From contig CAMEOO010000001.1 in NCBI GenBank assembly GCA_945929875.1, forward strand, positions 73,765 to 137,764: a DNA stretch of 64,000 nucleotides, written 5' to 3'. The position numbers and the translations under genes were made by a program. The notes beneath the pieces are model-generated. The model saw only the letters and a list, made by a program, of their open reading frames with translations, did no database searches and was not told the origin of the DNA. Each line of letters opens with the position of its first letter. Positions within the stretch are counted from its first letter, which is position 1. This document shows positions 1,518-57,463 of this stretch, piece after piece. The stretch is from an uncultured Bacillales bacterium (GTDB taxonomy: Bacteria > Bacillota_I > Bacilli_A > RFN20 > CAG-449).

Positions 1518-1623
1518 AACATTACCTTGATTAAATTATATCACACAAAAATAATAATAAAAGAGGCAAGGCAGTTAAAAAAAGAAACTACTTTTTTTCT
1601 TTTATTCTTAAAAGCAATAAAAG

Positions 1624-1644
1624 AAAAAAGCTCTCTTAGAGAGC
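1624..1644 (-). terminator. Rho-independent terminator after the 145-aa membrane protein gene
   Basis: The minus-strand RNA reads GCUCUC-UAA-GAGAGC (stem 1630-1635 / 1639-1644) one nucleotide after the stop codon, followed by six U (1624-1629). Confidence 0.7.
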
Positions 1645-1645
1645 C

Positions 1646-2083: not shown

Positions 2084-2143
2084 ATTTTATTTCTCCTTTC
2101 TAATATCATTATATATTATAGATATTTTGTAAATAAATATAAA

Positions 2144-5515: not shown

Positions 5516-5527
5516 GTTAATCCCCCT

Positions 5528-6139: not shown

Positions 6140-6140
6140 A

Positions 6141-7577
6141 TTATTCACCTTTCTTGACATAGCCATAATCTGGCATATCGTATTTCTCTTGCTTTATTAC
6201 CCTTGTCATAGGGTCTTTTCTTTTTAAAGTGTAGAAAGAATTATCGTCACTAGCTTTAACGCTACCAAGAATAACCATAATGAAATCTTCTACATCTTTA
6301 ACATTGATATCACTGACATTAATCTCTTTTTGATCTTTGAATGCTTTATCCATAAAATCGAGAATTTTTTCATCGCTATATTGATCCATAATATCTAGTA
6401 AGGACTGCATTAAACCTTCGTTAACCTCATGATCAAAATCGTCGATCATCATTGGTTCTCCATCATTCCTTGGATTTCTCTTATATGGTCTTTGTAAACT
6501 ATATTCATCGAGGTAACCTTGTTGATAAAGATTAATTGAATTGTTGATATCTTTAATTACATCTTTATAGATTGAGCCATTTTCTTCACCATTGATAACC
6601 TTAGCTAGAGCTAAGAAAATCGTTTCTAGTTTTCCTTTGATTGTTTTATCGGAATTATTTAGGTAGATAACTTTTTCCGTCGTTGCTAAAGTATATTCTG
6701 ATTGAGCTTTATCTATTTCTTCCATGTCGCCCGCTAGATGAGAATACGTATCAGAAATATAATTGATTTTTTTTATGATATCATTGATAGCTTCTTCTTT
6801 AGAATGAAGATTCCTATTGTAGATAAGGGCTTGATTAACAAGTTTTTCCCTTACTGCATCAGTATTTAACCATCTCTTTAAAATAAAATTGATAGGTCCA
6901 TTATAAAGAATGATTGAATCGTTAGTTTTAAGTGGGTGATAGATCGGATCAACAACATCTTCTCTTGCGATATCAAAGTGTTGTTCAAGAACTTCATTTG
7001 GCGAGAAGATATTAGATAATTGTTTATGGAAAACTTTGATTGAGTGATTTAGTTTAGAAACTTCTAGTTCTAATTCTTTTGTATTGTTAACCGCGTTAAC
7101 AAGGCTTCGATACATAAATTCGTCTTGAGATTCGTCTTCATATTGCAAATCCGCGAAAGTTGAGTGAACGTAAGAAATGTATTTTGATTCGTTATCAGAA
7201 ACAAATTCATAGATGATTTTAAGCATGGAAATTGAATAACTTGGTAGCAAGATATATTCACAGCCTGTCTTTAAATCAGTGTCAATCATTATCCAACCAG
7301 TATCAACTAAGCGTCTTACAACTAGATTAGCTTTACCAGCAAGAGTAGGTTCAACTAGAAGAGAATTATCTTCAAATTCATCTACTTCAACCTTAAAAAG
7401 ATTAATTTCATTTTCTCCTCGGCTTTTAAGTAAATCTAAATAATCGCTTTTTCTAATCTTATTTCGATATAAAGTTAAGCAATCAAAAAGTGTTACTAAT
7501 GCTATACCATAGACATTTTTATTTTTACTTGATAATATGCTAAAGAAATTATCAGGAATCTTGTTAAAAAAGTTCAA
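6141..7577 (-). CDS. jetA: JetA / MksF-like (DUF3375-like, kleisin-type) subunit
   Basis: 478 aa with a TTG start 6 nt after GGAGG. The N-terminal region contains ...KANLVVRRLVDTGWIMIDTDLKTGCEYILLPSYSISMLKIIYEF..., reminiscent of the winged-helix segment of DUF3375 proteins. Size and first position in the trio match JetA/MksF. Confidence 0.55.
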   Translation of the reverse strand: MNFFNKIPDNFFSILSSKNKNVYGIALVTLFDCLTLYRNKIRKSDYLDLLKSRGENEINLFKVEVDEFEDNSLLVEPTLAGKANLVVRRLVDTGWIMIDTDLKTGCEYILLPSYSISMLKIIYEFVSDNESKYISYVHSTFADLQYEDESQDEFMYRSLVNAVNNTKELELEVSKLNHSIKVFHKQLSNIFSPNEVLEQHFDIAREDVVDPIYHPLKTNDSIILYNGPINFILKRWLNTDAVREKLVNQALIYNRNLHSKEEAINDIIKKINYISDTYSHLAGDMEEIDKAQSEYTLATTEKVIYLNNSDKTIKGKLETIFLALAKVINGEENGSIYKDVIKDINNSINLYQQGYLDEYSLQRPYKRNPRNDGEPMMIDDFDHEVNEGLMQSLLDIMDQYSDEKILDFMDKAFKDQKEINVSDINVKDVEDFIMVILGSVKASDDNSFYTLKRKDPMTRVIKQEKYDMPDYGYVKKGE

Positions 7578-19766: not shown

Positions 19767-20558
19767 TTAAATTAAAAATTTTCTTAAAAATGTAAGTGCA
19801 TTTTTTTCAAGTCGACTCACTTGAGCTTGAGAAATATTATAAATTTTAGCAATCTCTATTTGCGATTTACCTTGATAGTAACGTTTTTGAATAATATCTC
19901 TTTCAAGATTATTTAATGAATCAATTCCTTGTTTTAATGATAAATAATTTATCATTTTTTCTTCCGTATAATTGTTATCTGAAACGACATCTTGAAGTAA
20001 TATCGATTGATCAAAATCATTATATAAAGGCTCACTTAAAGAAGAAATAGGTAAAGTGGATTCAATTGCTTCTTGTAGTAAATAAGGGTCGATCTTTAAT
20101 TTCTTAGCCATCTCTTCATTAGAAGGGATTGTTCCAAATTCATTGATATACCTTTCCTTCTCTTTCATAAAATGGTAGGCTGTATCCTTAATCTGACGAG
20201 ATATTCTTAATATCGATGAATCTCTAAGATAACGTCTAATTTCTCCATCGATCATTGGAACCGCGTAAGTTGAAAACTTGACATCTAAAGACAAATCAAA
20301 ATTATTGATCCCCTTTAAGAGACCTAAAGTACCAATTTGAAAAAGATCATTAGCTATTTCATTTTTTTTATTATATTTATTCACTATGGATAAAACTAAT
20401 TTTAGATTTCCTTTAACCAAATCATCTAAATATTCTTTACTTCTTGTTTCACGATATTTTTTTAATAAATCTAACGATTCATCACTAGATAAAACTTTTA
20501 ACCGGTTTGTATCGATTCCGACGATTTCTACTTTGTTTTTCGGCATATTTTCACCCAA
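19767..20558 (-). CDS. sigG: Sporulation sigma factor SigG (SigF/SigG family)
   Basis: 263 aa with VEIVGIDTNRLKVL, NLKLVLSIVNKY, DLFQIGTLGLLKGINNFD, FSTYAVPMIDGEIRRYLRD and the C-terminal HTH SQIEIAKIYNISQAQVSRLEKNAL. It lies downstream of spoIIGA-sigE as in Bacillus. Confidence 0.85.
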   Translation of the reverse strand: MGENMPKNKVEIVGIDTNRLKVLSSDESLDLLKKYRETRSKEYLDDLVKGNLKLVLSIVNKYNKKNEIANDLFQIGTLGLLKGINNFDLSLDVKFSTYAVPMIDGEIRRYLRDSSILRISRQIKDTAYHFMKEKERYINEFGTIPSNEEMAKKLKIDPYLLQEAIESTLPISSLSEPLYNDFDQSILLQDVVSDNNYTEEKMINYLSLKQGIDSLNNLERDIIQKRYYQGKSQIEIAKIYNISQAQVSRLEKNALTFLRKFLI

Positions 20559-20598
20559 AAATTAATATGGGCAAAAATTTCTAATTTATAACAAATAA

Positions 20599-21144
20599 TT
20601 AAATCTTAAAGTTAAATTTTTTGTCTACTTGTGGTTCATTTACTTGAGTTAATTTATCAATCGAAGTAAAAATAGCTTTAATTAAATTATTAAAATCGCT
20701 TGCTTTAGCTTTTTTAAATATTACCTTTGTTGGAAGATTATTAATATTGGTAGGATATTCAATCCAAATAGTTTTTGTCCTTTTTAAAAAGTAAAGTAAA
20801 AAGAATATAAATGATAGTAAAAAAGTTGTTGTTGCGGAAATAATCAAATAAAGAATAATTTTATCTAAAAGCGCTTTATTTTGAAAATATAGAAAAGCGC
20901 TAGCAGCTAAAATGATGAACATCAAAACTAAGAAGATAATCCCAAAAGTTTTGAAAGTTAAATTCTTTTGATTGGAATACCTAATTGCAGTTACTTTATC
21001 AAGTTGAATAACTTTATTAGTTAAAATTGATTTTGATTTTTTCTTCTTTTGAGAGACGATATATATTCTTTTATTAGAAACCGTAATTGGATATAATTCA
21101 CCCATCACTAATTCATCTTCTGAAGCTAAAACTTGTTCTTTCAT
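20599..21144 (-). CDS. Membrane protein: PH-like N-terminal domain, two TM helices, short C-terminal domain; unknown function
   Basis: 181 aa with SD AGGTGA. Helices FGIIFLVLMFIILAASAFLYF and IILYLIISATTTFLLSFIFFLLYFL. It sits between the mini-sepF and sigG. Confidence 0.55.
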   Translation of the reverse strand: MKEQVLASEDELVMGELYPITVSNKRIYIVSQKKKKSKSILTNKVIQLDKVTAIRYSNQKNLTFKTFGIIFLVLMFIILAASAFLYFQNKALLDKIILYLIISATTTFLLSFIFFLLYFLKRTKTIWIEYPTNINNLPTKVIFKKAKASDFNNLIKAIFTSIDKLTQVNEPQVDKKFNFKI

Positions 21145-21213
21145 AATTTTTCACCTAAAACAATCATATGATAAATTAAATCTCTTTTCAATTTTTTTCT
21201 ATCATTATAAAAA

Positions 21214-21447
21214 CTAGAGGGAGAAAATATAAATGTTATCCTCCAGTTTTTCTCTTGAGCCTTTTAGCGCAAAGATGTAACCGCTTAAAAAATCGATCAC
21301 ACGATATTTTTCTTTGACATCTAAAGAAGAAATATTTACGATAATTGCTTTATTTTCTAATAAAGTTTTAATGCAATCATAAATATTTTCAGTGTCTTTT
21401 ACTAAGAAAACTTTAGGTGTCACTTGCTTACTTTTAACTTTATTCAT
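21214..21447 (-). CDS. sepF: Minimal SepF (FtsZ-binding C-terminal domain only)
   Basis: 77 aa. PKVFLVKDTENIYDCIKTLLENKAIIVNISSLDVKEKYRVIDFLSGYIFALKGSREKLEDNIYIFSL aligns along its whole length with the B. subtilis SepF core ([34 protein letters not shown]...[31 protein letters not shown]). The ATG overlaps the sigE stop by 8 nt. Confidence 0.8.
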   Translation of the reverse strand: MNKVKSKQVTPKVFLVKDTENIYDCIKTLLENKAIIVNISSLDVKEKYRVIDFLSGYIFALKGSREKLEDNIYIFSL

Positions 21448-22138
21448 GGTTTTTCATCGTCTGTTTGAGCTTTTTCAAAATTCTTTTTTCAAGTCGAGAA
21501 ATATAAGATTGCGAGATATTTAATTTTTCACTAGTTTCTTTTTGTGTGAGTTCTTCACAACCATCAAGACCAAATCTCATCGATAATATTTCTCTTTCCC
21601 GTGGCTTTAATTTTTCTAAAGCTTTATGTAGTTCATCGATCATTTCTTCTTGCTCTAATGAAGAAAAGACTTTATTATCAGAATCACTTAATATATCTTC
21701 AAGAAGGAGTTCATTACCATCGTAATCAACCTTCAAAGGCTCGTCTAAAGATACTTCTACTTTCGATTTAGATTTTTTTCTAAGATACATTAAAATTTCA
21801 TTTTCAATACATCTAGATGCATAGGTAGCTAGTTTGATGTTTTTATCGATTTTAAAAGTATTGATCGCTTTGATTAAACCAATGGTACCAATAGAAATCA
21901 AATCTTCTAAATTATTGATATTAGTATCGTAACGCTTTGCAACATAGACCACTAAACGAAGATTGTGTTCAATTAAAATATTTCTTGACTCGATACTTCC
22001 TTTTTCATATTGAGCAATATGATAATCCTCTTCTTCTTTTGTTAATGGAGGAAGAAGATTTTCACTCCCATTAATGTAGTGAGTTGAACCATTTAGATGA
22101 AACAATTTTACTAAAAAATAATATATTTTTTTTAACAT
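21440..22138 (-). CDS. sigE: Sporulation sigma factor SigE (pro-sigma-E)
   Basis: 232 aa with an N-terminal pro-sequence followed by YINGSENLLPPLTKEEE, IEHNLRLVVYVAKRY, DLISIGTIGLIKAINTF and KLATYASRCIENEILMYLRK, a near-identical layout to B. subtilis pro-SigE. Confidence 0.92.
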   Translation of the reverse strand: MLKKIYYFLVKLFHLNGSTHYINGSENLLPPLTKEEEDYHIAQYEKGSIESRNILIEHNLRLVVYVAKRYDTNINNLEDLISIGTIGLIKAINTFKIDKNIKLATYASRCIENEILMYLRKKSKSKVEVSLDEPLKVDYDGNELLLEDILSDSDNKVFSSLEQEEMIDELHKALEKLKPREREILSMRFGLDGCEELTQKETSEKLNISQSYISRLEKRILKKLKQTMKNHE

Positions 22139-22140
22139 AA

Positions 22141-22884
22141 TTACCTCAAATAAGCATTAAGTAATATTTCACATCCATGAAATGAATTAATATCATCGAC
22201 TAATACAACGTAAACAAAAAACTCTTCATCTTTATCTTCAACGCTAATTAAAGCGTTATACCCTATATTTATTTCTATTCCATTTACAGTTTCTACTTCG
22301 ATTTCTTGAGGAGATGATAAATCAAACATCCAAATTTTTTTTAAGCAAAATATAACTGGGACATTATTATATTTTAAGGTATTACCATTATCAAAATAAG
22401 CGCTGAAAGAATATTTTTTATCATCTTTTGAAATGAAGCAAGTAGTCTTATAAACATGAAGATGAAATACCGAATCAACAAACTTGGTAGCTAAGAGTAA
22501 ACATAGCCCAAAAAATGGGACAAATAGGCTATATAATACTCCAATAGGTTTATTGATTACTAGATAAATATTTATAAGTTTAATGTTGTCAGTGATTAAT
22601 ATGACAAAAAAATCTATAAGAAAAAATAAAAGATTAAAAATTAAATAAGAATATAGCCATTTTTTATTAAATGCAACAAATATAAATAAATTAACAATAA
22701 TAAAAATTAATAGGCTAAAGATAAAATGAAGATAGATAGTAAAAAACAAACATGTGTTAACAAGAACTAATGTGATTTTCAGCCCCCTCTTATAACGGTA
22801 TACCATCAATAATTCGGATCCATAAATGCATACCATGATTTGAATTAATAGAAACACCATACTTAAATCTAAATAGACGTCCAT
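22141..22884 (-). CDS. spoIIGA: Sigma-E processing aspartic peptidase SpoIIGA
   Basis: 247 aa with five N-terminal TM helices and a C-terminal domain containing YFDNGNTLKYNNVPVIF (compare the catalytic DSGN motif). It lies immediately upstream of sigE. Confidence 0.8.
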   Translation of the reverse strand: MDVYLDLSMVFLLIQIMVCIYGSELLMVYRYKRGLKITLVLVNTCLFFTIYLHFIFSLLIFIIVNLFIFVAFNKKWLYSYLIFNLLFFLIDFFVILITDNIKLINIYLVINKPIGVLYSLFVPFFGLCLLLATKFVDSVFHLHVYKTTCFISKDDKKYSFSAYFDNGNTLKYNNVPVIFCLKKIWMFDLSSPQEIEVETVNGIEINIGYNALISVEDKDEEFFVYVVLVDDINSFHGCEILLNAYLR

Positions 22885-34508: not shown

Positions 34509-36011
34509 TTATTCAGATAAATCAATTTCTTCTTTTTTAATCATCGCTTTATTGTAATAATAATATCCAAGTGAACCACCTACAAAAACTAGACCAATTG
34601 AAAGAGAAATGATAAAAGAATTTCTTTGCTTTTTCATATAATCATTATAGTAAGAAGTTAGAGATTCTTGATTGACATATTCTTTATCTCCTATTTTTAC
34701 ATAGAGAGCTAAAGTAGTAGAATTTGATGAAGTTAAATCAGACTTAATGACGATATTTTGATTAACTTCTTCATTTAGTATTGCTTCATTATCATAATAG
34801 TTAAATAGCGCACTTGGAATTTGAAAGGTGTGTTCTTGATATTTATTTTCTGAATCAGAAATTTTAATATTGATGCTCTTATTATTCCCGCTAATACTAG
34901 TAATTTGACCTTCCACCAAAGAATATGAAGAACTAGATAAATCAATTGGTTTACTAGTAAATAGTAAATATCCGGTGAATATAATATAAATTCCAACAAA
35001 AATTCCAATCATGACCAAAGTTGATTTCATCAATTTATTTTTATTTTGGTGATAACCTTTTACTCGTTTATCTAAATAAGCATATTTTAAGCCTAAATCA
35101 AAGTCATTTTTTCCTTCAAAATGATATTTATTTCTCATTTCTTTAATCTTTGAATAAGCTAAATAAGCATTAACTAATAAGATGATTAATAAGAAGTAAT
35201 TATTGAAATAGAAAGTAAAAAACAGTACAAAACCAATAATTAATATTTGTAATAGACAGTGTTTAACAATATCAATAATTTTATTCTTTTTTTCATTTTC
35301 CCTAAATCTAGCACCAATTTCGGTATATTTTTCTACTTGAGAAGAAGTATATTTATCATTTTCTATTTTCTCGCTTTCACTAGTAGGAGTTTCATTTTCT
35401 AAAGAAACAGTCTCAGTGCTTTGCTCGTTACTTGGTTCTTCCTTCTTTTTAAGTTCGATTTTATAATAATTTAATAAATTTTCATTAAAATCAACGTCTA
35501 AATCATGGTATAGATGAGAAATGATCTTATCGACATTTTGATAGTTGTAAACTAAATAAAATAGAGTAGAATTATTATCATTTCCAAAATAAATCTTATT
35601 TTGATTGATGCTAGATTTTTTAACTTCTGTTTCTTCAACTATTCTTTCATCTTTTAAAAAACTTTTAATATAAAATTTCCCTTCAGATAATTTTACATAA
35701 TCAAAATAGTATTTGATAAAGAAATTTAAACTCATTCCATTTATTAAGAGTAATAGTATTAAATACATAAAAAATGATAATAAATCAATTTTTGAGATAA
35801 TTGAAAAAATTAAAACTAAAATAAACCCGACATTAGAACTAATAAGCATTACTAGGTAAAGAACTTTGCTTGTCCCAGGCGAAGTAACTACAATAGAATT
35901 TTCTTCATCAATTCTTCTGCCATTTACTATTTTTAAATTTAATAAAAAGTAAATCACACTAGCTAAATTTAAGACTAAAAGAATACTACAGACAATAATT
36001 TTAAAAACCAT
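34509..36011 (-). CDS. Large polytopic membrane protein, unknown function
   Basis: 500 aa with about 7 hydrophobic helices in three clusters, separated by two soluble segments. No motif recognised. Confidence 0.55.
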   Translation of the reverse strand: MVFKIIVCSILLVLNLASVIYFLLNLKIVNGRRIDEENSIVVTSPGTSKVLYLVMLISSNVGFILVLIFSIISKIDLLSFFMYLILLLLINGMSLNFFIKYYFDYVKLSEGKFYIKSFLKDERIVEETEVKKSSINQNKIYFGNDNNSTLFYLVYNYQNVDKIISHLYHDLDVDFNENLLNYYKIELKKKEEPSNEQSTETVSLENETPTSESEKIENDKYTSSQVEKYTEIGARFRENEKKNKIIDIVKHCLLQILIIGFVLFFTFYFNNYFLLIILLVNAYLAYSKIKEMRNKYHFEGKNDFDLGLKYAYLDKRVKGYHQNKNKLMKSTLVMIGIFVGIYIIFTGYLLFTSKPIDLSSSSYSLVEGQITSISGNNKSINIKISDSENKYQEHTFQIPSALFNYYDNEAILNEEVNQNIVIKSDLTSSNSTTLALYVKIGDKEYVNQESLTSYYNDYMKKQRNSFIISLSIGLVFVGGSLGYYYYNKAMIKKEEIDLSE

Positions 36012-37606: not shown

Positions 37607-40168
37607 TTAATCATTTATACCAGGAATAATTGATTCTTCTGGTTCAGAACCTACATTTCTATGAGCTTCTTTGATTTTATTTAATCTCTTTTTGCCTTTT
37701 TCTTTTTTCTTAGTTAATACTTTAGTCATTCTCTTAGCGCGATAAGAATAATATTTTTCTTCAAGTTTTAAACAAATTGGAGTAAATAAGAAACAAGTTA
37801 ACAAGGTAGCTAGAACAAGAGAAACAAGCATTCCACCAAATACGCTTACTAGATCTAAAGGAATAAAGAATGCCCCGACAATAATTAGCCCACAAGCTAC
37901 AGAAGAAATCGTAATGACACTACTTAAGCTTTCTTTATTTCCTCTTAGGATAATTTCTTTTCTTTGCTCGAATGTGGCAACTTTTGTTTTTGATTCACGA
38001 GTGAGCTTTTTAAATCTTGCTAGTAGAGGTATTTGAGAAATTGATGCAATTAGTAATCCCGAAGCAATTCCCATAAGTAGTAATGGAGAAGTTGGAATTC
38101 TAGCAATCGAGAATAATGCTACTGCAACTAAACCAGCAGGAATAATTGTGCTTAAAGAAGAAATACCATAACTAAATCTGTATCTAATTGTGAAGTAAAT
38201 TCCAGAAAGAAGACCAAACATAACTAAGGTTATTGCACTATATGTTAGGATGTAAGTTGGCATAGTTGATTTTGTGGTAGCGACAAATAACTCAACATTT
38301 TCTCCTTGTACTTCCTCTAAATTAAAGAATTTTTCTTCTAATGTATCATAGAAAGTATCATAATCAATACCTTGAGAATCAAATTCGATAGAGATGTAAG
38401 CCATAGTAGGTAAATCGTCACGGTTTTGAGGATCAAGGACAACGTTTTCAACTTTGTTGATTGAAATCATTGTTGGAGTTAAATCAAATTCGTTTTGGAA
38501 AAATTCATTAACTTCATCTTTAGTATCAAATACGTGGGTATTTCCACTAACTTCAGCAGTTATTTCCACTCTGGTAGTTGAATCAAATTCTGAAGTGTAG
38601 TTTAATGTGCCTACACCTGGAATTAAAGAAGTAACCAAAATTACAACAACAGAAACTGCGCTAGCAATTAAAGCAATTAATGAAACTTTCTTTCCTTCTC
38701 TATTTGGATTAAATTTGTACATGAAATTAAATTTCTTTTGAGTTTCATCTTTATTCGCGCTGATGAGGTCCTTATCTTTAACCATAAATATCTTTCTATT
38801 CTCAGCGACTTTTGAGGAAGTGAGCCACCACATTGTAAGCATCATCAAGAGTCTAGTTACAACATATGAAGCAATTGCACCGATTGTTAAAGTGATAGGT
38901 AATAATTTAACTTGGTTAATAGAAATTAAAATTGTAATAATGCTACTAATTAATGAACATACTAATACGTCAAGAGACAGAATTCTAGTTGATTTGAATG
39001 CTTCTGAATTTGCTTTAATAGGTGATTTACCTTTATATAATTCATCTTTAAAGTTTTCAAGTAATGGAACAATTAACGCTAGATTTAACGCCATGATAAT
39101 CAAGAATGATACTACGACCATCGTAGTAAGAGGATAACCAAAGAAGTTAAATACAACAATAGATAGCAAGTTACTAACTAAGAATGCGCTTGCTCCACAA
39201 AGTCCCGCTAAGCCATATCTCACAATTAAGAAAATGCAAGCAAGAAGTGTTAATACTGAAACACCGATTAATACGATGTTGAATGAATTGTTACCAAAAG
39301 TTGCATTAACTTTTTGAACGTAAAGGCGTCTTAACGAATAATCTTGTGGCTCATAATTTAATAATCTTTCAATTGTATGAGCGGAATCGCTAACCATTTG
39401 AATTTGATCAAAATCGTATCTATCAATTAATAATGAAGCAGTAGTAACTTTATCATTTAAATCTTTCTCTACCTTAAAATAAGAAGTAGGAACAATTGAT
39501 AAGATTTTTTCTTTGATTTTTTCTTGAATAACTTTATTTTCGTTTTCAAATGCATCAACATAGCTATCTGCTTCTGTTTTATCAAGCCAAATAACGACTA
39601 CACCATCGATTTTACTTGAATCTTCGCTATCTTCTAGATATTTGTTCTTAAATTCTTCGTATGCATTGTTACATGATGTAATAAAGTTATTAAATTTATC
39701 GTAATCTTTTACATCAACTTGAACATATGGAGTGCTTCCGGAATATTCAACTTTCGCACTGCCAATGACAAATGGGTCAGTAATTTCAATGTAGTCCCCT
39801 TCATCCATAACGCCAGATACTGTGATAGTTCCAGTAGCTTCTAATGAACGTAGAACATATTCAAAGTCATCTTCCGTTTGCGCATTTGTTTGAATTCTAA
39901 CTTGATGATTATCACCATTAGTGTCAACATCGCTAACAGATTCAATATTTGCGTTTCTCACGCCTGCATCTTCAATTCGATTAGTCAATATTTCGACAAT
40001 ATCTTCGATTGTCTTTGTACTTTCTTCAAAATCAATTTGATAAACAGCTTCATATCCAGTACCATACTCTAAACCTGACTTTAATGAACTTACTTGTAAT
40101 GGCGTACAAAATAAAACTGTACAAATTAAGGTTATTACTGTTGCAATATATCCGGCAAAACGTCGCAT
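37607..40168 (-). CDS. secDF: Fused protein translocase subunit SecDF
   Basis: 853 aa with two repeats of (large extracytoplasmic domain plus 5-6 TM bundle). The N-terminus reads SLKSGLEYGTGYEAVYQ (compare the SecD GLDLxGG region). It is adjacent to recJ as in Bacillus. Confidence 0.8.
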   Translation of the reverse strand: MRRFAGYIATVITLICTVLFCTPLQVSSLKSGLEYGTGYEAVYQIDFEESTKTIEDIVEILTNRIEDAGVRNANIESVSDVDTNGDNHQVRIQTNAQTEDDFEYVLRSLEATGTITVSGVMDEGDYIEITDPFVIGSAKVEYSGSTPYVQVDVKDYDKFNNFITSCNNAYEEFKNKYLEDSEDSSKIDGVVVIWLDKTEADSYVDAFENENKVIQEKIKEKILSIVPTSYFKVEKDLNDKVTTASLLIDRYDFDQIQMVSDSAHTIERLLNYEPQDYSLRRLYVQKVNATFGNNSFNIVLIGVSVLTLLACIFLIVRYGLAGLCGASAFLVSNLLSIVVFNFFGYPLTTMVVVSFLIIMALNLALIVPLLENFKDELYKGKSPIKANSEAFKSTRILSLDVLVCSLISSIITILISINQVKLLPITLTIGAIASYVVTRLLMMLTMWWLTSSKVAENRKIFMVKDKDLISANKDETQKKFNFMYKFNPNREGKKVSLIALIASAVSVVVILVTSLIPGVGTLNYTSEFDSTTRVEITAEVSGNTHVFDTKDEVNEFFQNEFDLTPTMISINKVENVVLDPQNRDDLPTMAYISIEFDSQGIDYDTFYDTLEEKFFNLEEVQGENVELFVATTKSTMPTYILTYSAITLVMFGLLSGIYFTIRYRFSYGISSLSTIIPAGLVAVALFSIARIPTSPLLLMGIASGLLIASISQIPLLARFKKLTRESKTKVATFEQRKEIILRGNKESLSSVITISSVACGLIIVGAFFIPLDLVSVFGGMLVSLVLATLLTCFLFTPICLKLEEKYYSYRAKRMTKVLTKKKEKGKKRLNKIKEAHRNVGSEPEESIIPGIND

Positions 40169-46934: not shown

Positions 46935-47486
46935 TTATACTATTATTTTTATATAATCTACTTCTAAGGTTTCTACATAGTTTAACGAGCCATTTTTACT
47001 ACCCAAATTAAAATATATACTAAGAGTTATTTTATAGTCACTTAATAGGCCTAAATCATTAAAATGATAGACTTCTTTTAATCCATCTCCATATACACTA
47101 GTGGCATAACTTGGAGAACTAGATATGGTTTTGCTAAAATATGTTTGAGCATCTATTTTCCTTGAAACCGTAATCTTTTTTCCAATTACTTTAAAAGAAT
47201 ACGAATCATTGAAATTATACGAGTATTTTTGAAATTTATACGCTTCAAATCCTGATTCGTTTTTACATATATTTTATCCGACTTTAAAATAGTCTTCAAA
47301 ATAGCCTTCAGCTTTTTTTACATTTTTAGTTAAGATACTCTTACATTTTCCATAATTGATTTGAGAATCTGAATAGGTTTGACTTGCAAAGTATATTACT
47401 TGACCATAATCCATCTTTTTTGCGCAACTATTTAAAGATATTAAAGAAATAATTGCTAAAAAAAGCGTTAACAATTTCTTTTTCAT
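46935..47486 (-). pseudogene. Lipoprotein paralogue interrupted by one in-frame TAA (codon 71)
   Basis: The 70-aa ORF 47274-47486 (MKKKLLTLFLAIISLISLNSC...) stops at TAA. The same frame stays open for 112 more codons (NICKNESGFEAYKFQKYSYNFNDSYSFKVIGKKITVSRK...EVYHFNDLGLLSDYKITLSIYFN...) down to TAA at 46935-46937. Both halves align with the intact 186-aa neighbour. The stop sits where the neighbour has Lys (VGK), consistent with AAA to TAA. Confidence 0.75.
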
Positions 47487-47576: not shown

Positions 47577-48137
47577 TTATTTGGAATATGTGTTAGTGAT
47601 TGTTGTGGCCATAGTAATTCCACCGTTTACAGTAACGCCAAATGAAGACATCGTGAATGACATATCAATAGAAACAGTAGCCTTAGTTAATAGTCCTTCT
47701 TCATTAAAATAATAAGTTTCTTTTGATCCCTTTCCAGTAACTTTTGCTTCCACTGAATCTAAAAGGCCTAATTGATCATCCACTTCTTTAAAGTAATCAG
47801 CTGAACTCACTGATTTAGTAACAGTCATTTCTTTACCATTTAAAGAATAAGTATATGTATCATCAAAATCTAATGACACAACATCATATTTATATGTATC
47901 AACGCTAGAATCTACTTCATCTTCCGTCTTTCCTACTTCAAACATTTTAGCGTAAATACCTTCCGCTTTCTTAACATCGATAACTGTTTTTGTTTTACAA
48001 CTCTTATAGTTAAGTTCAACTTTAGAATAATTCTCACTAGCGAAAGTTTTAGCTTCTTCATAATCTAATTTTTTTGAACAACTTCCTAGGGTAAAAACAG
48101 ACAAAACCGCTAAAGATAATAATAATTTCTTTTTCAT
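47577..48137 (-). CDS. Lipoprotein, unknown function
   Basis: 186 aa with signal peptide plus lipobox MKKKLLLSLAVLSVFTLGSC and a mature part rich in beta-strand-like T/V/S/Y segments. It is a paralogue of the adjacent pseudogene. Confidence 0.75.
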   Translation of the reverse strand: MKKKLLLSLAVLSVFTLGSCSKKLDYEEAKTFASENYSKVELNYKSCKTKTVIDVKKAEGIYAKMFEVGKTEDEVDSSVDTYKYDVVSLDFDDTYTYSLNGKEMTVTKSVSSADYFKEVDDQLGLLDSVEAKVTGKGSKETYYFNEEGLLTKATVSIDMSFTMSSFGVTVNGGITMATTITNTYSK

Positions 48138-48218: not shown

Positions 48219-48962
48219 CTAAGTATCTTTTTCTCTTTGATAAATCTTATCGATTATTTCATTTTGGTTGAAAAACTTTGTCTTATCGAAATAATAATTA
48301 TTTCTAAAGCGGAAAATCGTTAATTTTTTATTAATTTTATCTTTATAATTTTCTTTTGAAAATCTTTTTTTTATTAAAAACAATAAATAATCTTTTTTAA
48401 AATTGACAATTTGAGAAATAAAACCAATTAAAATAAATCCAATTATTAAAGCATCACCCAAAGTATTTATTACAAATAATAGCAAAAGTACAAGAATGAA
48501 AGATAAAATGATTCTTATTACTCTACATTGTAATTCATTAAAAAAATGAGCCAAAAGGATATCGATTATCTTTCCTCCATCTAAAGGATAAATAGGTATA
48601 ATGTTAAATAATAGTATCATCATATTATATTCTTGTGCCAAGCGAAGACCATATGATGAAATTAAGTTTACTTCAAATAATAATTTAATCAATAACAGGC
48701 TTATAAAATAACTTGCAGGACCACTGATAAGAATCAATAATTGCTTAATTGGATGTAATAAATATATATCCTCTATTTTTGCATTAAATCCAGTTGGATA
48801 CATTATTATTTCTTTAGTTCTTATTTTAAAGATTTTGGCTACAAATACATGCGATAATTCATGAATTAATCCAAAGATATATAAAAATAAAATACCATTA
48901 AATCTATTAAATATCAGGGCTAAAAGAATATAAATAATGGTTAAAGGATGGATAATTAACAT
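48219..48962 (-). CDS. spoIVFB: Site-2 (M50) intramembrane metalloprotease SpoIVFB
   Basis: 247 aa with HELSHVFVA (HExxH) in a TM helix and YPLDGGKI (the LDG motif). It follows spoIVFA with a 1-nt TAATG overlap. Confidence 0.8.
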   Translation of the reverse strand: MLIIHPLTIIYILLALIFNRFNGILFLYIFGLIHELSHVFVAKIFKIRTKEIIMYPTGFNAKIEDIYLLHPIKQLLILISGPASYFISLLLIKLLFEVNLISSYGLRLAQEYNMMILLFNIIPIYPLDGGKIIDILLAHFFNELQCRVIRIILSFILVLLLLFVINTLGDALIIGFILIGFISQIVNFKKDYLLFLIKKRFSKENYKDKINKKLTIFRFRNNYYFDKTKFFNQNEIIDKIYQREKDT

Positions 48963-49519
48963 TACTTAATTTCTGAATAGTCGATCATTTTTCCATCTTG
49001 CTTAAATAAGGCTTTAAAAGTTTGATTGTATGAGCAAAGATAATCCCCCTTTTTTACTTGATCGTAAGTTTTGACAAGGGGATCAAATACGTTATAATAA
49101 GCAACAAGAAGCGAGTTTTGATACTCTACAAGTAGAGAATATGAATCATCTAACTCTTTTTTTACTAAATAAACCACTCCATAATCTAAGGAAGGAATTT
49201 GACTTCCTTCACAATAAAAATAATCATCTTCATCACTTTTTAAATAAATGACATTAGAATTTACACTTTTAACGCCACTACTATTTGTTCTAAAGGTAAA
49301 TAATGAATCTAGTACATTATCAACATTTTCATTCACTTTTGTAAAATTTGCATTTATCCCAAAATTATTTTTCAAAAAAGAGGCATTTTGATCTTTCTTC
49401 ATATAAATGAGAACTCCAAGAAGAATAGATAATAATCCACATACTACACTTAATATTTTAAAAACTTTGTTCTTTTTATCTTTTTTAATGCGATTTCTAA
49501 TGTCTTCAACCTTGTCCAT
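48962..49519 (-). CDS. spoIVFA: SpoIVFA-like regulator (single TM plus degenerate LytM/M23 domain)
   Basis: 185 aa with a basic N-terminus and TM ILSVVCGLLSILLGVLIY. The C-terminus GVVYLVKKE...LLVEYQNSLLVAYYNVFDPLVKTYDQVKKGDYLC...FKQDGKMIDYSEI parallels the B. subtilis SpoIVFA C-terminus. It has the minD-spoIVFA-spoIVFB synteny. Confidence 0.6.
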   Translation of the reverse strand: MDKVEDIRNRIKKDKKNKVFKILSVVCGLLSILLGVLIYMKKDQNASFLKNNFGINANFTKVNENVDNVLDSLFTFRTNSSGVKSVNSNVIYLKSDEDDYFYCEGSQIPSLDYGVVYLVKKELDDSYSLLVEYQNSLLVAYYNVFDPLVKTYDQVKKGDYLCSYNQTFKALFKQDGKMIDYSEIK

Positions 49520-50259: not shown

Positions 50260-50735
50260 AACAATTGATCTCCTTTAATAAAAACATTTTCTTTTGTTAG
50301 ATATGAGGAAGACTTAGTATTAATGATCTTCGCGTTATTTAACTTTTTGCAAACCACTTTTGCATCTTCATTTTCTAAAATTAAAGTTCCTTCTACTTCA
50401 CCTAGAAAAATAGCAAAGGAACTAATTTTTAGAGTCATTTCTCTTGGTATTTTAAACTTAATAAGCGATTTTTGATCAAGAGTTTTAACTAGAGGAAAAT
50501 CATCTTCTTCATATTCATAAAAACTTTTATCGATTACATTTAAAGAAGTTATTATTCCTTTGTTATAAAAACTTAATTTTGGAACAATTAAAGATAGACT
50601 TTCTTCAAATAGATCTTTGCTGACTTCTAATTTCATATACACTTGACTGGTAAAACTATTAAATATCGATTCGATGTTAGCTAAACAATTTAATAATTGC
50701 TCTCTACTAGTAATAATCATAATTTCTTCTTTCAT
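50256..50735 (-). CDS. Hypothetical protein; possible highly divergent MinC (positional call only)
   Basis: 159 aa with a 4-nt ATGA overlap with minD. The C-terminal beta-rich segment LKISSFAIFLGEVEGTLILENEDAKVVCKKL could be a MinC-like beta-helix, but no convincing motif match. Confidence 0.3.
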   Translation of the reverse strand: MKEEIMIITSREQLLNCLANIESIFNSFTSQVYMKLEVSKDLFEESLSLIVPKLSFYNKGIITSLNVIDKSFYEYEEDDFPLVKTLDQKSLIKFKIPREMTLKISSFAIFLGEVEGTLILENEDAKVVCKKLNNAKIINTKSSSYLTKENVFIKGDQLL

Positions 50736-50851
50736 ATTCTCACCGTTATAATTATCCTACAATCACCATGTCGAAATTTTGCACTTTTATAATTTTTTTT
50801 TAGATTTTTTTATTTTTCTTACTAAGTATCTATATGAAGGAGGAAAAATCT

Positions 50852-51028
50852 ATGCGCATGTTAAGTGATGTTGAAATGATGACACTAACAGGTGGAGAAG
50901 TATTTACTATCGCTGCAGTTATGGCTTGTTTAGCCGCTGCCATCGTCGCAGTTATCTGCTATCGCCTATTTATGTCAAAAAGTGGAAGTACAACTTTGCC
51001 TGGTGGATTTAAATTTACCTGGGCATAA
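50852..51028 (+). CDS. 58-aa peptide with a double-glycine (class II bacteriocin / pheromone type) leader and a hydrophobic 43-aa core
   Basis: MRMLSDVEMMTLTGG / EVFTIAAVMACLAAAIVAVICYRLFMSKSGSTTLPGGFKFTWA. The leader matches LSxxELxxIxGG at positions -12, -11, -8, -7, -4, -2 and -1. GGAGG lies 8 nt upstream of this ATG (the ORF-track start at 50834 contains the SD). The TAA stop shares a nucleotide with the radC ATG. Confidence 0.6.
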   Translation: MRMLSDVEMMTLTGGEVFTIAAVMACLAAAIVAVICYRLFMSKSGSTTLPGGFKFTWA

Positions 51029-51699
51029 TGGCAAGAATTAAAGATTTGCCTCTAAATGAAAGGCCAAGAGAAAAGGCCTTATTGTTTGGAATCGACAAAT
51101 TATCTAACGCGGAACTACTTGCTCTTTTAATTAGTTCTGGAAATAAGAAGATGTCTAGTTTAGAAATCGCTAATAATTTGTTAGTTAAAACTAGTGGTAT
51201 TGAAAACTTAAAGTACCTTACTTTAGATGAATTATTAGAGATTGAAGGTATCAACAAAGCGAAAGCTTTAAATATCCTTTCAATTTTTGAAATAGCAAAA
51301 AGAGCTTACGTTGAAGTAAAAAGAAAAAAAATCGACATAAATTATTTAATTAAATACTTTAAATCCATCTATCAAAATGAAAAGCAAGAGAAATCATTTT
51401 TAGTATTAGTAAATAATAAGGATGAGCTTCTCTTCATTAAGGAGCTCTTTATTGGAAACGAAAACTCTTTAGCATTTTCAAGTCGAGTGATTATTAGCTA
51501 TATAGTAAAATACGACGCAAAAAAGTATTATCTAGTTCACAATCATCCAAGCGGCAATCCTCTTCCTAGTCAAAATGATCTACTTACAACTAGTTCATTA
51601 GAACTAATTACTTTAGGAATTTCCTGCTCTCTTGTGGACCATCTAGTCTTTGGGAAAGATTCTTGTTATTCGATCATTCAAAAAAAAGAGATCAAGTAG
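51028..51699 (+). CDS. radC: RadC-family JAB/MPN domain protein (UPF0758)
   Basis: 223 aa with an N-terminal HhH region (LSNAELLALLISSG) and the JAMM-like motif HNHPSGNPLPSQND. It has no SD of its own, only the TAATG coupling to the upstream peptide. Confidence 0.88.
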   Translation: MARIKDLPLNERPREKALLFGIDKLSNAELLALLISSGNKKMSSLEIANNLLVKTSGIENLKYLTLDELLEIEGINKAKALNILSIFEIAKRAYVEVKRKKIDINYLIKYFKSIYQNEKQEKSFLVLVNNKDELLFIKELFIGNENSLAFSSRVIISYIVKYDAKKYYLVHNHPSGNPLPSQNDLLTTSSLELITLGISCSLVDHLVFGKDSCYSIIQKKEIK

Positions 51700-51701
51700 A
51701 A

Positions 51702-51727
51702 AAAAGATGAGGTTTCCCTCATCTTTT
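51702..51727. terminator. Bidirectional terminator between convergent radC and the M16 protease gene
   Basis: Perfect 11-bp stem AAAAGATGAGG / CCTCATCTTTT (51702-51712 / 51717-51727) with a 4-nt loop and A/T tracts on both sides. It exactly fills the gap between the two stop codons. Confidence 0.85.
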
Positions 51728-51728
51728 A

Positions 51729-54617
51729 TTATAGAGATTTTACTTTTTCAAATGAGTATTCTTTAATCTTTTGCTCATTTCCAATAGTTGATTCACTTGA
51801 AAGTGGAATTAATTTTTCAAAGACGTCTCCTAAAGATCTAATATCGTTAACGCTTGTATGTAACATTTCTTTTTTAAGATTCATCTTATCTTTCTTTGAA
51901 TATCCACGTAAATAATATAAGTCAGCTGTATCGATAGTTAAAGGAGTTGACATTGGTGAATCGAACCCACCTAAAGCTCCGATAATGTAATTATTAAATT
52001 CATCTTTTGACACTTTGAAATTCTTTAAATATGTCACTACATCTTTAAATGCAGCATAAGTATTTACTACATTAGGATCACGGTATGAGCCAAAGCAAAC
52101 ATCGTTAGTTAGCTCAGCTGATAGACTGCAACCATAAGCTCCTCCTTTAACTCTAACTTGAACCCATAAATAGTCGTAATTTACAATGTGAGATAGAACT
52201 AAATATTTACCTGACAATTTTTCATTTACATTTTCAAGATTACCCGCTAAAGCGTTGTAAGAAACTTGAGAAGGAACTATTAGCGCCTCTTTTGTTGGTT
52301 CTTTAATATTTGCACTTAGTCTATTTTCATAAGAATTATCGTAAAGTTTTATCTTTTTGACTTGTCTCTTTAATAAAGATAAGGTTTCTTTATCACCAGA
52401 AATAGAGACTTTAACATTGTCGTAAGTAAAGATTTTACTAGAAATCTCCTTTAATTTATTAACAAAGTCTTTATAAGAGAAATCTTTTAATAAATTATTT
52501 AAGAAATCAAAGAATTTTGGTCCATTTGCGTATAAAGAATAGTAGTATGCTTGTTTTGAGAAGTGGCTCTTTGCATCGTTCATTGCAATTCTCATTCCAT
52601 TTTCAATGATTTCATTTCTAACTGCCGTTTGCATTTGCTTTAATACTTGCAAGACTTCCTTCTTAGTAAATTTAGATTTCATTAAGACTTCATTTGTTAA
52701 TGAAGGAATGTAAGAAACATTTTCTAAAATTGCACTTAAAGAAACGCTTAAATAGAGTGAAGCATCATCTTTAGAACTACCAAATGTAGATACTTTAAAT
52801 GAGAAATCTCCTAAGTAAGTTTTAATTAAATTAGTTAATTCTAAGGAACTATGTTTTTTAGTAGGTACGTTTAAATATAAAGAAGTTAATAAAGTGACGT
52901 AAGGAATTTCTTCTTCGGTCAATCTTTCTAGATTAAAATATAGTCTAGTGTAAGCAATCTTATTGGTATTGATGGTATGAGTGAATCCTTCCATCTTCTT
53001 TAATTGAACTTTTTTAGAATCAAGGTAATTGACACTTGTTGGAATATCTTTTAATGAAAGTTTTGGAAGGCAAGAAAGTTCTTCTTTAGTGTCGATATGA
53101 TTTTGATAAAGAGCTAAATCTTGATTTAATTTAATTAAGTCTTCAATTTCTTGTTCACTCATACTCTCTTTGATTGCTTTCATCTTTTCTTCCATCAATC
53201 TATTTCTTTCTTCACCTAAAGTATTTGAAGGATTGACGACAACTTCAACATTATGAACGCTGTTGAGAATATATTTTTCTAATAATTTTTCAAAATATCC
53301 ATTATCTAATTCTCTCTTAAATTTTTCATAATGTTTTGAAAATTGTAAATGGCTAGTAATATCACCTTTGTAATTGAAACTTCCCATCATATTCATGGCG
53401 AAGATTAATCCTTTAGGCATTCTACCCATATCTAATTCTTTATCTTTAAATTCTGAAAAATTAATTGAAGCTAAAAGTAAAGATTTATCTATTCCTTGAG
53501 ATACAATATCTCTAACTGCATTTTCAAAAGTTTCTTTGAATAGCTCTTTTTTATCTTTGTTAGTTTTTTCAAGGACGATAGTAAGACTTGGAGTGATATT
53601 TCCATCATCAATTACTGCATAAACATTTTCTCCAAGTTTAGCGTCTAATAATTTCTTTTTTAATGGAGAGTCATTTTTAGATAATAAAGCGTCATTTAAT
53701 ATTTGCATCGCTAGTAATTCTTCATAATTATCAAAACTATCTAATGCATAGCATAAAGACATATAAGTATTATCTTTTAATGATTCTTCTTTACCGATTT
53801 CATAATCTTTTTCATAATTCAAATTGATTACTGGTTTTTGTTTTTCGATAGTTATTTCTTCACCAGTTTTATCAAACTTAGAGAAGTATTCTTCATCTAA
53901 GAACTTTAATTTCTCTTCAATATCCATCTTTCCATAAAAATAAGTCATTGCATTTTCAGGGGTGTAATGTTTTTTATAGAAAGCTTTATAATCTTCATAA
54001 GTTAAAGAAGGAATTACTTCTGGATCTCCTCCAGAATTATGGCGATAAATTGTATCTGGATACATCGCTTCATTCGTCGCTTGATTTAAGACGCGATCAA
54101 CTGAGCTCATCGCTCCTTTCATCTCGTTATAAACTACCCCTTTATAAGAAGGTAATCCATCTTTAGAATTTAACTCAAGATGCCATCCTTCTTGTAAGAA
54201 AGGTTTAGGATCTTTAACTGATAAAGGATTAAAAACTGCATCTAAATAAATGCTTAAAATATTGTCAAAATCTTTTGGAGTTTGTGAAGAGAATGGATAC
54301 ATCGTCCAATCGCTTGCGGTAAATGCATTTAAAAAAGTAGCTAAAGAAGTTTTTAATAAATTGACAAATGGCTCTTTTAAAGGATACTTTTCTGAACCGC
54401 ATAGTAAACTGTGTTCGATGATGTGGCAAACCCCTGTACTATCTTGTGGTAAAGTTCTAAAGCCGATGGTGAAGGCACAATTAGTATCTTCACAAGCTAA
54501 ATAATATACATTCCCACCTGATTTAAGATGTTCGTAATGATATAGAGTCGCGCTGATATCATTAACTGGAGTGACATCTAATAATTTAAATCCATATTTA
54601 ATTTCATTAATTTCCAT
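51729..54617 (-). CDS. M16C-family (PreP / insulinase-like) zinc metalloprotease
   Basis: 962 aa with the inverted zinc motif HIIEH in CHIIEHSLLCGSEKYP. The four-domain size is typical of presequence-protease-like M16C enzymes. Confidence 0.8.
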   Translation of the reverse strand: MEINEIKYGFKLLDVTPVNDISATLYHYEHLKSGGNVYYLACEDTNCAFTIGFRTLPQDSTGVCHIIEHSLLCGSEKYPLKEPFVNLLKTSLATFLNAFTASDWTMYPFSSQTPKDFDNILSIYLDAVFNPLSVKDPKPFLQEGWHLELNSKDGLPSYKGVVYNEMKGAMSSVDRVLNQATNEAMYPDTIYRHNSGGDPEVIPSLTYEDYKAFYKKHYTPENAMTYFYGKMDIEEKLKFLDEEYFSKFDKTGEEITIEKQKPVINLNYEKDYEIGKEESLKDNTYMSLCYALDSFDNYEELLAMQILNDALLSKNDSPLKKKLLDAKLGENVYAVIDDGNITPSLTIVLEKTNKDKKELFKETFENAVRDIVSQGIDKSLLLASINFSEFKDKELDMGRMPKGLIFAMNMMGSFNYKGDITSHLQFSKHYEKFKRELDNGYFEKLLEKYILNSVHNVEVVVNPSNTLGEERNRLMEEKMKAIKESMSEQEIEDLIKLNQDLALYQNHIDTKEELSCLPKLSLKDIPTSVNYLDSKKVQLKKMEGFTHTINTNKIAYTRLYFNLERLTEEEIPYVTLLTSLYLNVPTKKHSSLELTNLIKTYLGDFSFKVSTFGSSKDDASLYLSVSLSAILENVSYIPSLTNEVLMKSKFTKKEVLQVLKQMQTAVRNEIIENGMRIAMNDAKSHFSKQAYYYSLYANGPKFFDFLNNLLKDFSYKDFVNKLKEISSKIFTYDNVKVSISGDKETLSLLKRQVKKIKLYDNSYENRLSANIKEPTKEALIVPSQVSYNALAGNLENVNEKLSGKYLVLSHIVNYDYLWVQVRVKGGAYGCSLSAELTNDVCFGSYRDPNVVNTYAAFKDVVTYLKNFKVSKDEFNNYIIGALGGFDSPMSTPLTIDTADLYYLRGYSKKDKMNLKKEMLHTSVNDIRSLGDVFEKLIPLSSESTIGNEQKIKEYSFEKVKSL

Positions 54618-57236: not shown

Positions 57237-57457
57237 AAAAAAAAATCCTAATAGTCTAAACTATTAGGACGAATAACCGTGGTGCCACCTAGATTCAGAT
57301 TAATAATATATTAATCCCTCTAAATTATCTTAACGCGATAAACGGAAACATTACTTTCATACTCATAAGCGACTAGATTTACTTTTATTTGCCTTACTTT
57401 CACCTATCTAAGGCTCTCTAATTAATAAAAATGTAAATCACTTCTTAATCAACGTAT
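57237..57457 (-). promoter_or_regulatory. T-box riboswitch leader of valS (Val specifier)
   Basis: Minus-strand elements, 5' to 3': AGAGAG and GGUGAAAG (stem I base / K-turn region); candidate specifier GUA followed by A (57380-57382); the T-box sequence AAUCUAGGUGGCACCACGG (57277-57295); then the terminator UCCUAAUAGU-UUAG-ACUAUUAGGA (57246-57269) plus nine U. Confidence 0.85.
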
Positions 57458-57463
57458 GTCTAT

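Follow-up and report, generated by a model that had tools for sequence, protein, structure and literature searches.

Precursors of bacteriocins and peptide pheromones combine conserved leaders with diversifying cores. Pf3-coat-type proteins are small single-span proteins with an N-out/C-in orientation and YidC-type insertion. Another known arrangement is the pairing of a ubiquitin-like protein, the C-terminus of which ends in Gly-Gly, with a JAB (JAMM) protease, as in CysO-Mec+, QbsE-QbsD and SAMP-JAMM1. RadC-like genes adjoin toxin-antitoxin modules in E. coli prophage islands, and to our knowledge the question of RadC function has been without an answer for decades. The known leaders of substrates of peptidase-containing ATP-binding cassette (ABC) transporters (PCATs) end in GG, GA or GS, with Gly at -2, and are read via positions -4, -7 and -12, with the addition of Glu at -8 for ComA; positions -12, -8 and -7 have been shown to matter for ComA and LahT150 (PMC6363468). 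JAB domains that are associated with ubiquitin-like proteins act at the C-termini of these proteins, and RadC-type JAB domains have been argued to act on nucleic acids (Iyer et al., PMC3239186). The present study concerns a gene of 58 codons that directly precedes radC in a 64,000-nucleotide stretch of contig CAMEOO010000001.1 (the window) from an uncultured Bacillales bacterium.

The first-pass annotation of this gene proposed that its product is a PCAT-exported bacteriocin or pheromone with a double-glycine leader, or alternatively a small membrane protein with an N-terminus that mimics such a leader. Our data indicate that the alternative is the better-supported of the two. The reading that we lean toward is that of a lineage-specific, housekeeping, single-span membrane protein in the N-out/C-in orientation, with an N-tail that is derived from or mimics that of a bacteriocin, and not that of a secreted bacteriocin or pheromone. 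Literature searches turned up no description of a peptide-radC pairing, as the annotation had surmised, and the family is uncharacterised.

The peptide gene and its family

The open reading frame (ORF), the GGAGG Shine-Dalgarno sequence (SD) located 8 nt upstream, the LSxxE[LM]xx[IL]xGG N-terminus and the TAATG overlap with radC were all confirmed in the window, from which the product MRMLSDVEMMTLTGGEVFTIAAVMACLAAAIVAVICYRLFMSKSGSTTLPGGFKFTWA was read. An in-frame alternative ATG at 50834 was rejected as the start because the SD would fall inside that extension; the orthologues begin at the position that corresponds to 50852. Of 62 orthologous sequences, 49 have a perfect GGAGG at a distance of 5-11 nt before the start codon.

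A search of 5.8 billion proteins resulted in 41 homologues of 56-84 residues (most 57-62) with 53-95% identity, and a profile hidden Markov model (HMM) search of 1.84 billion cluster representatives resulted in only 72 clusters, a few of which were spurious repeats. When one genome per GTDB species was scanned, 62 peptide loci were found, all of them in metagenome-assembled genomes (MAGs) of uncultured Bacilli that are labelled as Bacilli, 'Erysipelotrichaceae', 'Mollicutes' or 'Tenericutes' and originate from gut, rumen and digesters. The members of the peptide family likewise all come from uncultured organisms (pig gut, rumen, chicken and human gut). The window's own organism is present in pig-gut metagenomes, and the runs with matching sequence are DNA metagenomes (pig-gut, faecal and wastewater) in which it occurs as contigs with flat, genomic-type coverage. 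The homologues, the species-level loci and the recurrent SD establish that the ORF is real, as had been argued from the window.

The peptide gene is single-copy in its genomes, and no copy was found among the plasmids and phages searched. Distances between peptide cores correlated with distances between the corresponding ValS proteins (r = 0.61, 38 genomes); together with the fixed valS-peptide-radC-(minCD or rplU) synteny, this correlation is consistent with vertical descent. The gene represents a narrow, old family that is inherited vertically in the valS-radC-minCD/rplU block. In four database entries (P0075, P0107, P0049 and P0064), the peptide is joined on its N- or C-terminal side to sequence that has no relation to it, such as a RodA/FtsW-like or UppP-like stretch; these are probably miscalled starts, frameshifts or chimeric contigs and not real fusions.

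Conservation of the leader-like segment and the core

Conservation was compared in the 38 genomes that carry the peptide, RadC and ValS genes. Mean pairwise identity was 33% for the leader (-13 to -1), 59% for the core (+1 to +43), 35% for RadC and 60% for ValS. The core, with its ValS-level conservation, is under strong purifying selection, and because it is more conserved than the leader, the pattern is the reverse of that of bacteriocin and pheromone precursors. Amino-acid identities benchmarked on ValS and RadC were used because synonymous sites are saturated (proportion of synonymous differences, pS, 0.54-0.66), which leaves the ratios of nonsynonymous to synonymous substitution calculated by the Nei-Gojobori method (0.34 for the core and 0.40 for the leader) uninformative.

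Counted back from Gly15, the leader of the window peptide reads L-12, S-11, E-8, M-7, L-4, G-2 and G-1. In terms of the positions of the leader among 61 distinct orthologues, Gly is present at -1 in all 61 and Glu at +1 in 56, while a hydrophobic residue is found at -4 in 42. The position that precedes the invariant Gly is Gly in only 24 of the 61, and the remainder have V (13), P (11), S (6), A (3), T (2) or C (2). The GG pair occurs together with hydrophobic residues at -4, -7 and -12 in 20 of 61 orthologues, the window peptide included. These three hydrophobic positions are all kept in 34 of 61 orthologues, and in 14 of the 37 xG sequences; in the xG lineages, -4 is often H, Q, T or E, and -7 is sometimes K, C or T. 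Distant members carry GN-E, VG-A or GK-S at the junction between leader and core. Conservation of the GG pair in related genomes was a check that the first-pass annotation had itself named, with loss of the pair to count against its exported-peptide proposal, and the pair proved not to be conserved. The family thus appears to keep the pattern of the recognition helix but not the cleavage dipeptide. The two Cys residues that had been pointed out in the core are present in the window translation but are not conserved in the family.

A search for the leader pattern [LMI][STN]xxE[LMI]xx[ILV]xGG covered 963 start positions in the window and 21,597 in 1.1 Mb of related loci. Every match near an ORF start was a member of the peptide family, so that the leader-like N-terminus is no chance match.

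Predicted structure and topology

AlphaFold2 (AF2), run with the family alignment, predicted a helix at residues 6-11, a break at the GG, a helix at residues 16-41, and two strands (46-48 and 54-56), with P50-G51-G52 at the turn of the hairpin. This predicted turn accounts for the invariant PGG without cleavage. The near-invariant residues of the long helix are E16, T19, A22, V23, M24, A25, A30-V34, Y37, R38, L39, F40 and M41, and those of the C-tail that are invariant among the 41 homologues are S42, G45, P50, G51, G52, K54 and F55. In distant members, the PGG of the C-tail is replaced by GND, GPN or PGD. The mean net charge is -1.8 for the N-tail and +2.0 for the C-tail, and since the C-tail is the more positive of the two in 56 of 61 orthologues, these 56 fit an N-out/C-in orientation by the positive-inside rule.

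On the membrane-protein reading, the strong SD would give high translation of the peptide, and the 58-residue product would enter the producer's own membrane, N out and C in, in the manner of Pf3 coat protein. The acidic N-tail of 15 residues would be located outside, the Ala/Val/Ile-rich helix 16-41 would cross the bilayer, and the basic aromatic tail (TTLPGGFKFTW) would form a small beta-hairpin with a PGG turn at the cytoplasmic face, where helix and hairpin may bind a conserved putative partner. The N-tail may have arisen from a double-glycine leader of the class II bacteriocin type or may resemble one by convergence, and its Gly would have been retained to form a hinge that breaks the helix, not as a site of PCAT cleavage. 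Ribosomes that terminate on the peptide ORF would then translate radC.

Search for an exporter and other bacteriocin-locus genes

Pfam scans of the window included about 45 of its 57 ORFs of at least 90 aa, and every ORF that is long enough to encode a PCAT was among them. In agreement with the first-pass annotation, the scanned ORFs included no PCAT gene, no two-component system and no gene of immunity type. The scanned window is a housekeeping region that contains the dcw cluster, ftsAZ, spoIIGA/sigE/sigG-like genes, pheST, ruvAB, obg and minCD, together with SpoIVFA/B-like genes, valS, lon, tig and a Wadjet system. No ABC exporter was found within 10 kb of the peptide gene in 71 related loci (1.1 Mb of flanks), nor was an immunity gene or a regulator. 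Only two ORFs in these flanks had both a Walker A motif and an ABC signature, and neither has PCAT architecture. A bacteriocin locus in the functional sense would have an immunity gene or regulator close by, a strain-variable or mobile distribution and a diversifying core; here, the synteny is of housekeeping type and fixed across 62 species, the core is near ValS identity and there are no plasmid or phage copies.

Coupling to radC and the RadC protein

The coupling of the peptide gene to radC is real and ancient: the radC start is located between -14 and +6 nt from the peptide stop in 54 of 54 measured junctions, and the four most divergent members examined (P0101, P0092, P0097 and P0110) likewise lie directly on radC. 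The statement that radC has no SD of its own was slightly too strong, as a weak partial SD, TGGG, is located 4-7 nt upstream of the radC start and comes from the conserved Trp57 codon. The usual gene order is valS, peptide, radC, and then either rplU-ysxB-rpmA-obg or minC-minD-M23-M50. In the window (50852-54617 region), the orientation of the peptide-radC pair as a whole is reversed with respect to valS and minCD and to the order that is usual in the clade, which again indicates that the two genes move together. A gene for a 962-aa M16C/PreP-type peptidase (51729-54617, - strand) is located between the pair and valS.

The peptide gene is independent of the radC that adjoins it. In locus L005 (10001-10230), the peptide gene is monocistronic, has its own terminator and is followed by minC, and radC is absent. 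In L032 and L053, the peptide gene is followed by rplU, and L043 is without radC. In L026 and L028 (10175-10591), the coupled downstream radC is a remnant of 138 aa that consists of the JAB domain only and lacks the HxH motif. The peptide sequence is unremarkable in all six of these loci, and L005 and L026/L028 are natural 'radC knock-outs' with an intact peptide.

The window RadC matched UPF0758_N (5e-23) and the RadC JAB domain (9.5e-25) in Pfam, as well as TIGR00608 with 140.6 bits against a cutoff of 133.85. The zinc motif HxHPSG..PS..D (HNHPSG..PS..D in the window) is intact in the window and in all 38 aligned orthologues. The position of the catalytic Glu is Val154 (51487-51489), as 'HPRE' of PDB 2QLC is aligned opposite 'SSRV', and this column is non-acidic in about half of the RadC proteins of the clade. 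The constraint on RadC catalysis may be relaxed, or the chemistry may be different. The missing catalytic Glu, together with the retention of the peptide where radC has been lost, disfavours RadC as a protease that acts at the invariant Gly.

In outgroup Firmicutes, radC belongs to a maf-radC-mreB-mreC-mreD(-minCD) operon, in which it overlaps or abuts maf (-8 or +3 nt). Expression through translational coupling is thus common to radC in general. Neither maf nor mreB/C is located near the peptide gene in any of the 71 loci, and in this lineage the peptide gene takes the position that maf has in the outgroups. In the outgroup Clostridia loci L073 and L074 (3165-4675), a gene for an 82-aa two-helix DUF4321 protein overlaps maf by 4 nt, and maf abuts radC; a small membrane protein at the head of a maf-radC-mreBCD operon therefore recurs, with unrelated sequence. 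The link to competence that had been drawn from streptococcal radC was not upheld. The streptococcal com-box (TACGAATA) had 0 exact matches upstream in the 62 sequences and 3 with one mismatch, and the outgroup operon that carries radC is one of morphogenesis.

Coordinates and other features of the window

Table 1. Features of the peptide-radC locus, in window coordinates.
Feature	Position	Strand	Details and basis
Small membrane peptide gene	50852..51028	+	58 codons, stop codon TAA (51026-51028) included in the span; homologues and genomic loci
Residues 1-15, acidic N-tail like a GG leader, MRMLSDVEMMTLTGG	50852..50896	+	Family statistics, AF2
Residues 16-41, predicted transmembrane helix	50897..50974	+	AF2; starts at near-invariant Glu16, ends with YRLFM motif
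Residues 42-58, basic aromatic C-tail, SKSGSTTLPGGFKFTWA	50975..51025	+	Predicted beta-hairpin with PGG turn
Shine-Dalgarno GGAGG	50839..50843	+	8 nt before ATG; read directly
TAATG stop/start overlap	51026..51030	+	Peptide TAA with radC ATG (51028-51030); translational coupling
radC	51028..51699	+	Helix-hairpin-helix-type UPF0758_N and RadC JAB domains; Pfam, NCBIfam
G+C-rich hairpin with T/A runs on both sides	51702..51727	.	11 pairs; called on the - strand by terminator scan
Weak sigma-70-like promoter candidate TTAATA-16-AATAAT	50690..50717	+	Consensus scan; sole + strand candidate upstream

The hairpin downstream of radC may be a shared terminator of the peptide-radC operon and of the convergent M16 peptidase gene, its function on the + strand being judged from the sequence. 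Promoter-like sites upstream of the peptide gene are fewer than in shuffled sequence, and the candidate in Table 1 is no evidence of function. An Rfam scan of the window detected no RNA element in the 5' region of the peptide gene; the only match was the T-box leader of valS (RF00230, 97.8 bits, 57262-57461, - strand), which is located upstream of that gene. The window is without tRNA genes.

Several other features of the window were recorded. A Wadjet-type anti-plasmid system is located at 579-7577 (- strand) and consists of JetA (6141-7577; PF18982, 1e-81), a JetB-like DUF4194 protein (5528-6166), an SMC/SbcC-like JetC (2144-5515) and a 312-aa ORF without a Pfam match (579-1517) that is a possible JetD. 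At 19767-22884 (- strand), ftsA-ftsZ is followed by a 247-aa ORF without a Pfam match and by two sigma-70-family factors, in the order spoIIGA-sigE-sigG, and at 48219-49519 (- strand), M23-like and M50 proteins follow minCD in the order spoIVFA-spoIVFB. These sporulation-type gene orders suggest a spore-former or sporulation remnants in what is apparently a small-genome gut relative of Bacillus. Two adjacent, paralogous lipoprotein-like ORFs (MKKKLL...SC lipobox) that belong to no Pfam family are located at 47274-47486 and 47577-48137 (- strand); the first is only 70 aa in length and is probably a truncated duplicate. Two ORFs of 500 and 853 aa (34509-36011 and 37607-40168, - strand), without a Pfam match at 1e-5, lie between a recJ-like gene and the gene for a penicillin-binding protein of the dcw region.

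Discussion

Several observations weigh against the membrane-protein reading. Position -12, which is read by C39 peptidases, is kept under selection as L, M or I in 61 of 61 orthologues, Glu is found at -8 in 52 of 61 and a hydrophobic residue at -7 in 48 of 61, and an acidic N-out tail alone gives no obvious need for conservation at these three positions. NCBI gives one homologue the name 'class IIb bacteriocin, lactobin A/cerein 7B family', and weak matches to TIGR03949 (14/41, best 4.5e-6), TIGR01847 (12/41) and PF10439 (8/41) were obtained among the 41 members, while the window peptide itself had no NCBIfam match at E <= 10 and no bacteriocin Pfam match at E <= 1. The confidence of the AF2 model is only moderate, with a mean predicted local distance difference test score (pLDDT) of 74, values of 82-90 in the helix block and 63-64 in the tail, and the exporter negatives cover the window ORFs scanned and up to 10 kb around the 71 loci. 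The conserved -12, -8 and -7 and the repeated matches to models of GG-leader bacteriocins also speak for a true PCAT substrate, in which a C39-ABC exporter encoded elsewhere would recognise the L(-12)/E(-8)/[LM](-7)/[IV](-4) helix, cleave after the invariant Gly and export a hydrophobic peptide of 43 residues, which would then serve as a bacteriocin, as a signal or in a housekeeping role outside the cell. The fully canonical leader of the window peptide and of 19 other species fits this proposal, as do the more divergent members, which are mostly GG, so that GG is probably ancestral. We nevertheless consider it unlikely, because Gly at -2, invariant in the known GG/GA/GS sites, has been lost in 37 of 61 orthologues, because the core is conserved like ValS whereas the cores of bacteriocins and pheromones diversify, and because a single-copy, syntenic gene outside mobile elements has neither exporter, immunity gene nor regulator within 10 kb at 71 loci. 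Exported-peptide status, as the first-pass annotation had it, is thus poorly supported, and the membrane-protein reading accommodates the same leader as a retained or convergent N-tail.

The constancy of the pairing with radC raises the question of a dedicated partnership, in which the cytoplasmic tail of the peptide would tether RadC to the membrane or the JAB metalloprotease, relatives of which cleave behind Gly-Gly, would process the peptide at xG|E or PGG|F. The pairing persists to the detection limit of the family, including the four most divergent members examined, the coupling is universal among the junctions, the zinc motif is kept throughout the RadC proteins of the clade, and JAB domains tied to ubiquitin-like proteins act at the C-termini of these proteins. 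However, Gly(-1) is invariant although the window RadC has Val in place of the catalytic Glu and about half of the clade has a non-acidic residue there, the peptide is unchanged where radC is gone or degenerate, and it evolves far more slowly than RadC (59% versus 35% identity). The peptide is also helical and not beta-grasp, its PGG is modelled as a beta-turn and is not conserved in distant members, the like coupling of maf in outgroups means that coupling alone is no sign of partnership, and RadC-type JAB domains have been argued to act on nucleic acids (PMC3239186). Such a dedicated RadC partner is quite improbable in our estimate, and it is slightly more doubtful still that the peptide is the physiological partner of RadC, either as its membrane tether or as a substrate that the JAB domain cleaves at the invariant Gly. 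A small hydrophobic toxin of the type I or holin-like kind, with RadC or an antisense RNA as antidote, would agree with the single hydrophobic helix, with the weak match of 2 of 41 members to a type I toxin model (E = 0.097) and with the RadC-like genes that adjoin toxin-antitoxin modules in the prophage islands of E. coli; the order-wide vertical inheritance in a housekeeping operon, the strong SD, the ValS-like conservation, the lack of copies on phages and plasmids and the retention of the gene without radC make it highly improbable. Least probable of all is a purely regulatory upstream ORF with ribosome delivery to radC as its sole role: the radC SD is weak at best and the radC start always overlaps or abuts the ORF stop, but amino-acid conservation equal to that of ValS and the monocistronic peptide gene of L005, which persists with its own terminator where radC is absent, essentially refute it.

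Further candidate memberships were tested. A type IV pilin-like (class III) signal has a basic leader, Gly(-1), a hydrophobic residue at +1 and Glu at +5; it was rejected because, although Gly(-1) is present, the leader is acidic (-1.8), Glu is at +1 and not at +5, and +5 is L, I or M. A ubiquitin-like JAB substrate was rejected since the AF2 model has no beta-grasp but two helices and a short hairpin, and since PGG is replaced in distant members. For RadC as an active JAMM/MPN+ GG-peptidase, the position of the catalytic Glu upstream of HxH was found to be occupied by Val154. Homology to DUF4321 (PF14209) was rejected, as it was given a probability of 0.85% over 7 columns by hhalign and PF14209 is absent from the Pfam matches of the 41 members.

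These results bear on annotation, as a leader of the textbook GG type can be present on a membrane protein that is inherited vertically and has ValS-grade conservation. The label 'class IIb bacteriocin' is already given to some members by automatic pipelines, and tools for bacteriocin mining would include members in their counts; with a GG leader on a protein of housekeeping type, bacteriocin calls of this kind in gut Bacilli MAGs are likely false positives. In terms of evolution, the peptide may be a 'domesticated' double-glycine-leader peptide that has turned into an essential-like housekeeping membrane component, and the family may exemplify the recruitment of a bacteriocin-type prepeptide to housekeeping, in which selection continues to act on the recognition helix and the core as the cleavage site erodes. 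The peptide-radC pair, in place of maf-radC, offers a compact two-gene module for asking whether RadC works at the membrane, and a RadC partnership, if true, would provide the first concrete biochemical handle on RadC. Any function of the peptide would be new biology for a poorly known uncultured lineage.

Comparison with known systems

The locus resembles the pairs of ubiquitin-like and JAB proteins in that a small protein with a conserved Gly-Gly is encoded beside a JAB-domain protein. It differs from them in that the peptide is helical and predicted to span the membrane, neither of its GG pairs is family-wide, and the window RadC is without the catalytic Glu. The resemblance to the maf-radC-mreBCD(-minCD) operon lies in the coupling of radC to an upstream gene, which is maf in the operon, and in a neighbourhood of valS ... 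radC ... minCD, spoIVFA/B-like genes and rplU; unlike that operon, the 71 peptide loci are missing maf and mreBCD, and the peptide is not a homologue of DUF4321.

Among secreted peptides, the closest are the class II (IIb-type) bacteriocin and competence-pheromone prepeptides. The peptide shares with them an N-terminal segment of 15 residues with L-12, S/T-11, E-8, L/M-7, I/V/L-4 and G-1, and a hydrophobic core of about 43 residues that is rich in small-xxx-small motifs, and one third of its members match the HMMs of these prepeptides weakly. Unlike them, it has the core as its conserved part (59% versus 33%) and Gly(-2) in 39% of sequences, and its single-copy gene is inherited vertically in a housekeeping operon, with no PCAT, immunity gene or regulator near the 71 loci. 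The predicted topology of the peptide brings it close to the Pf3-coat-type proteins. Although the two have no sequence homology, and the peptide is not viral and has an extra conserved hairpin tail of 17 residues, both have an acidic N-tail of about 15-18 residues, a Gly just before an Ala/Val/Ile-rich helix, an aromatic residue with Arg/Lys right after that helix, and charges that fit the positive-inside rule.

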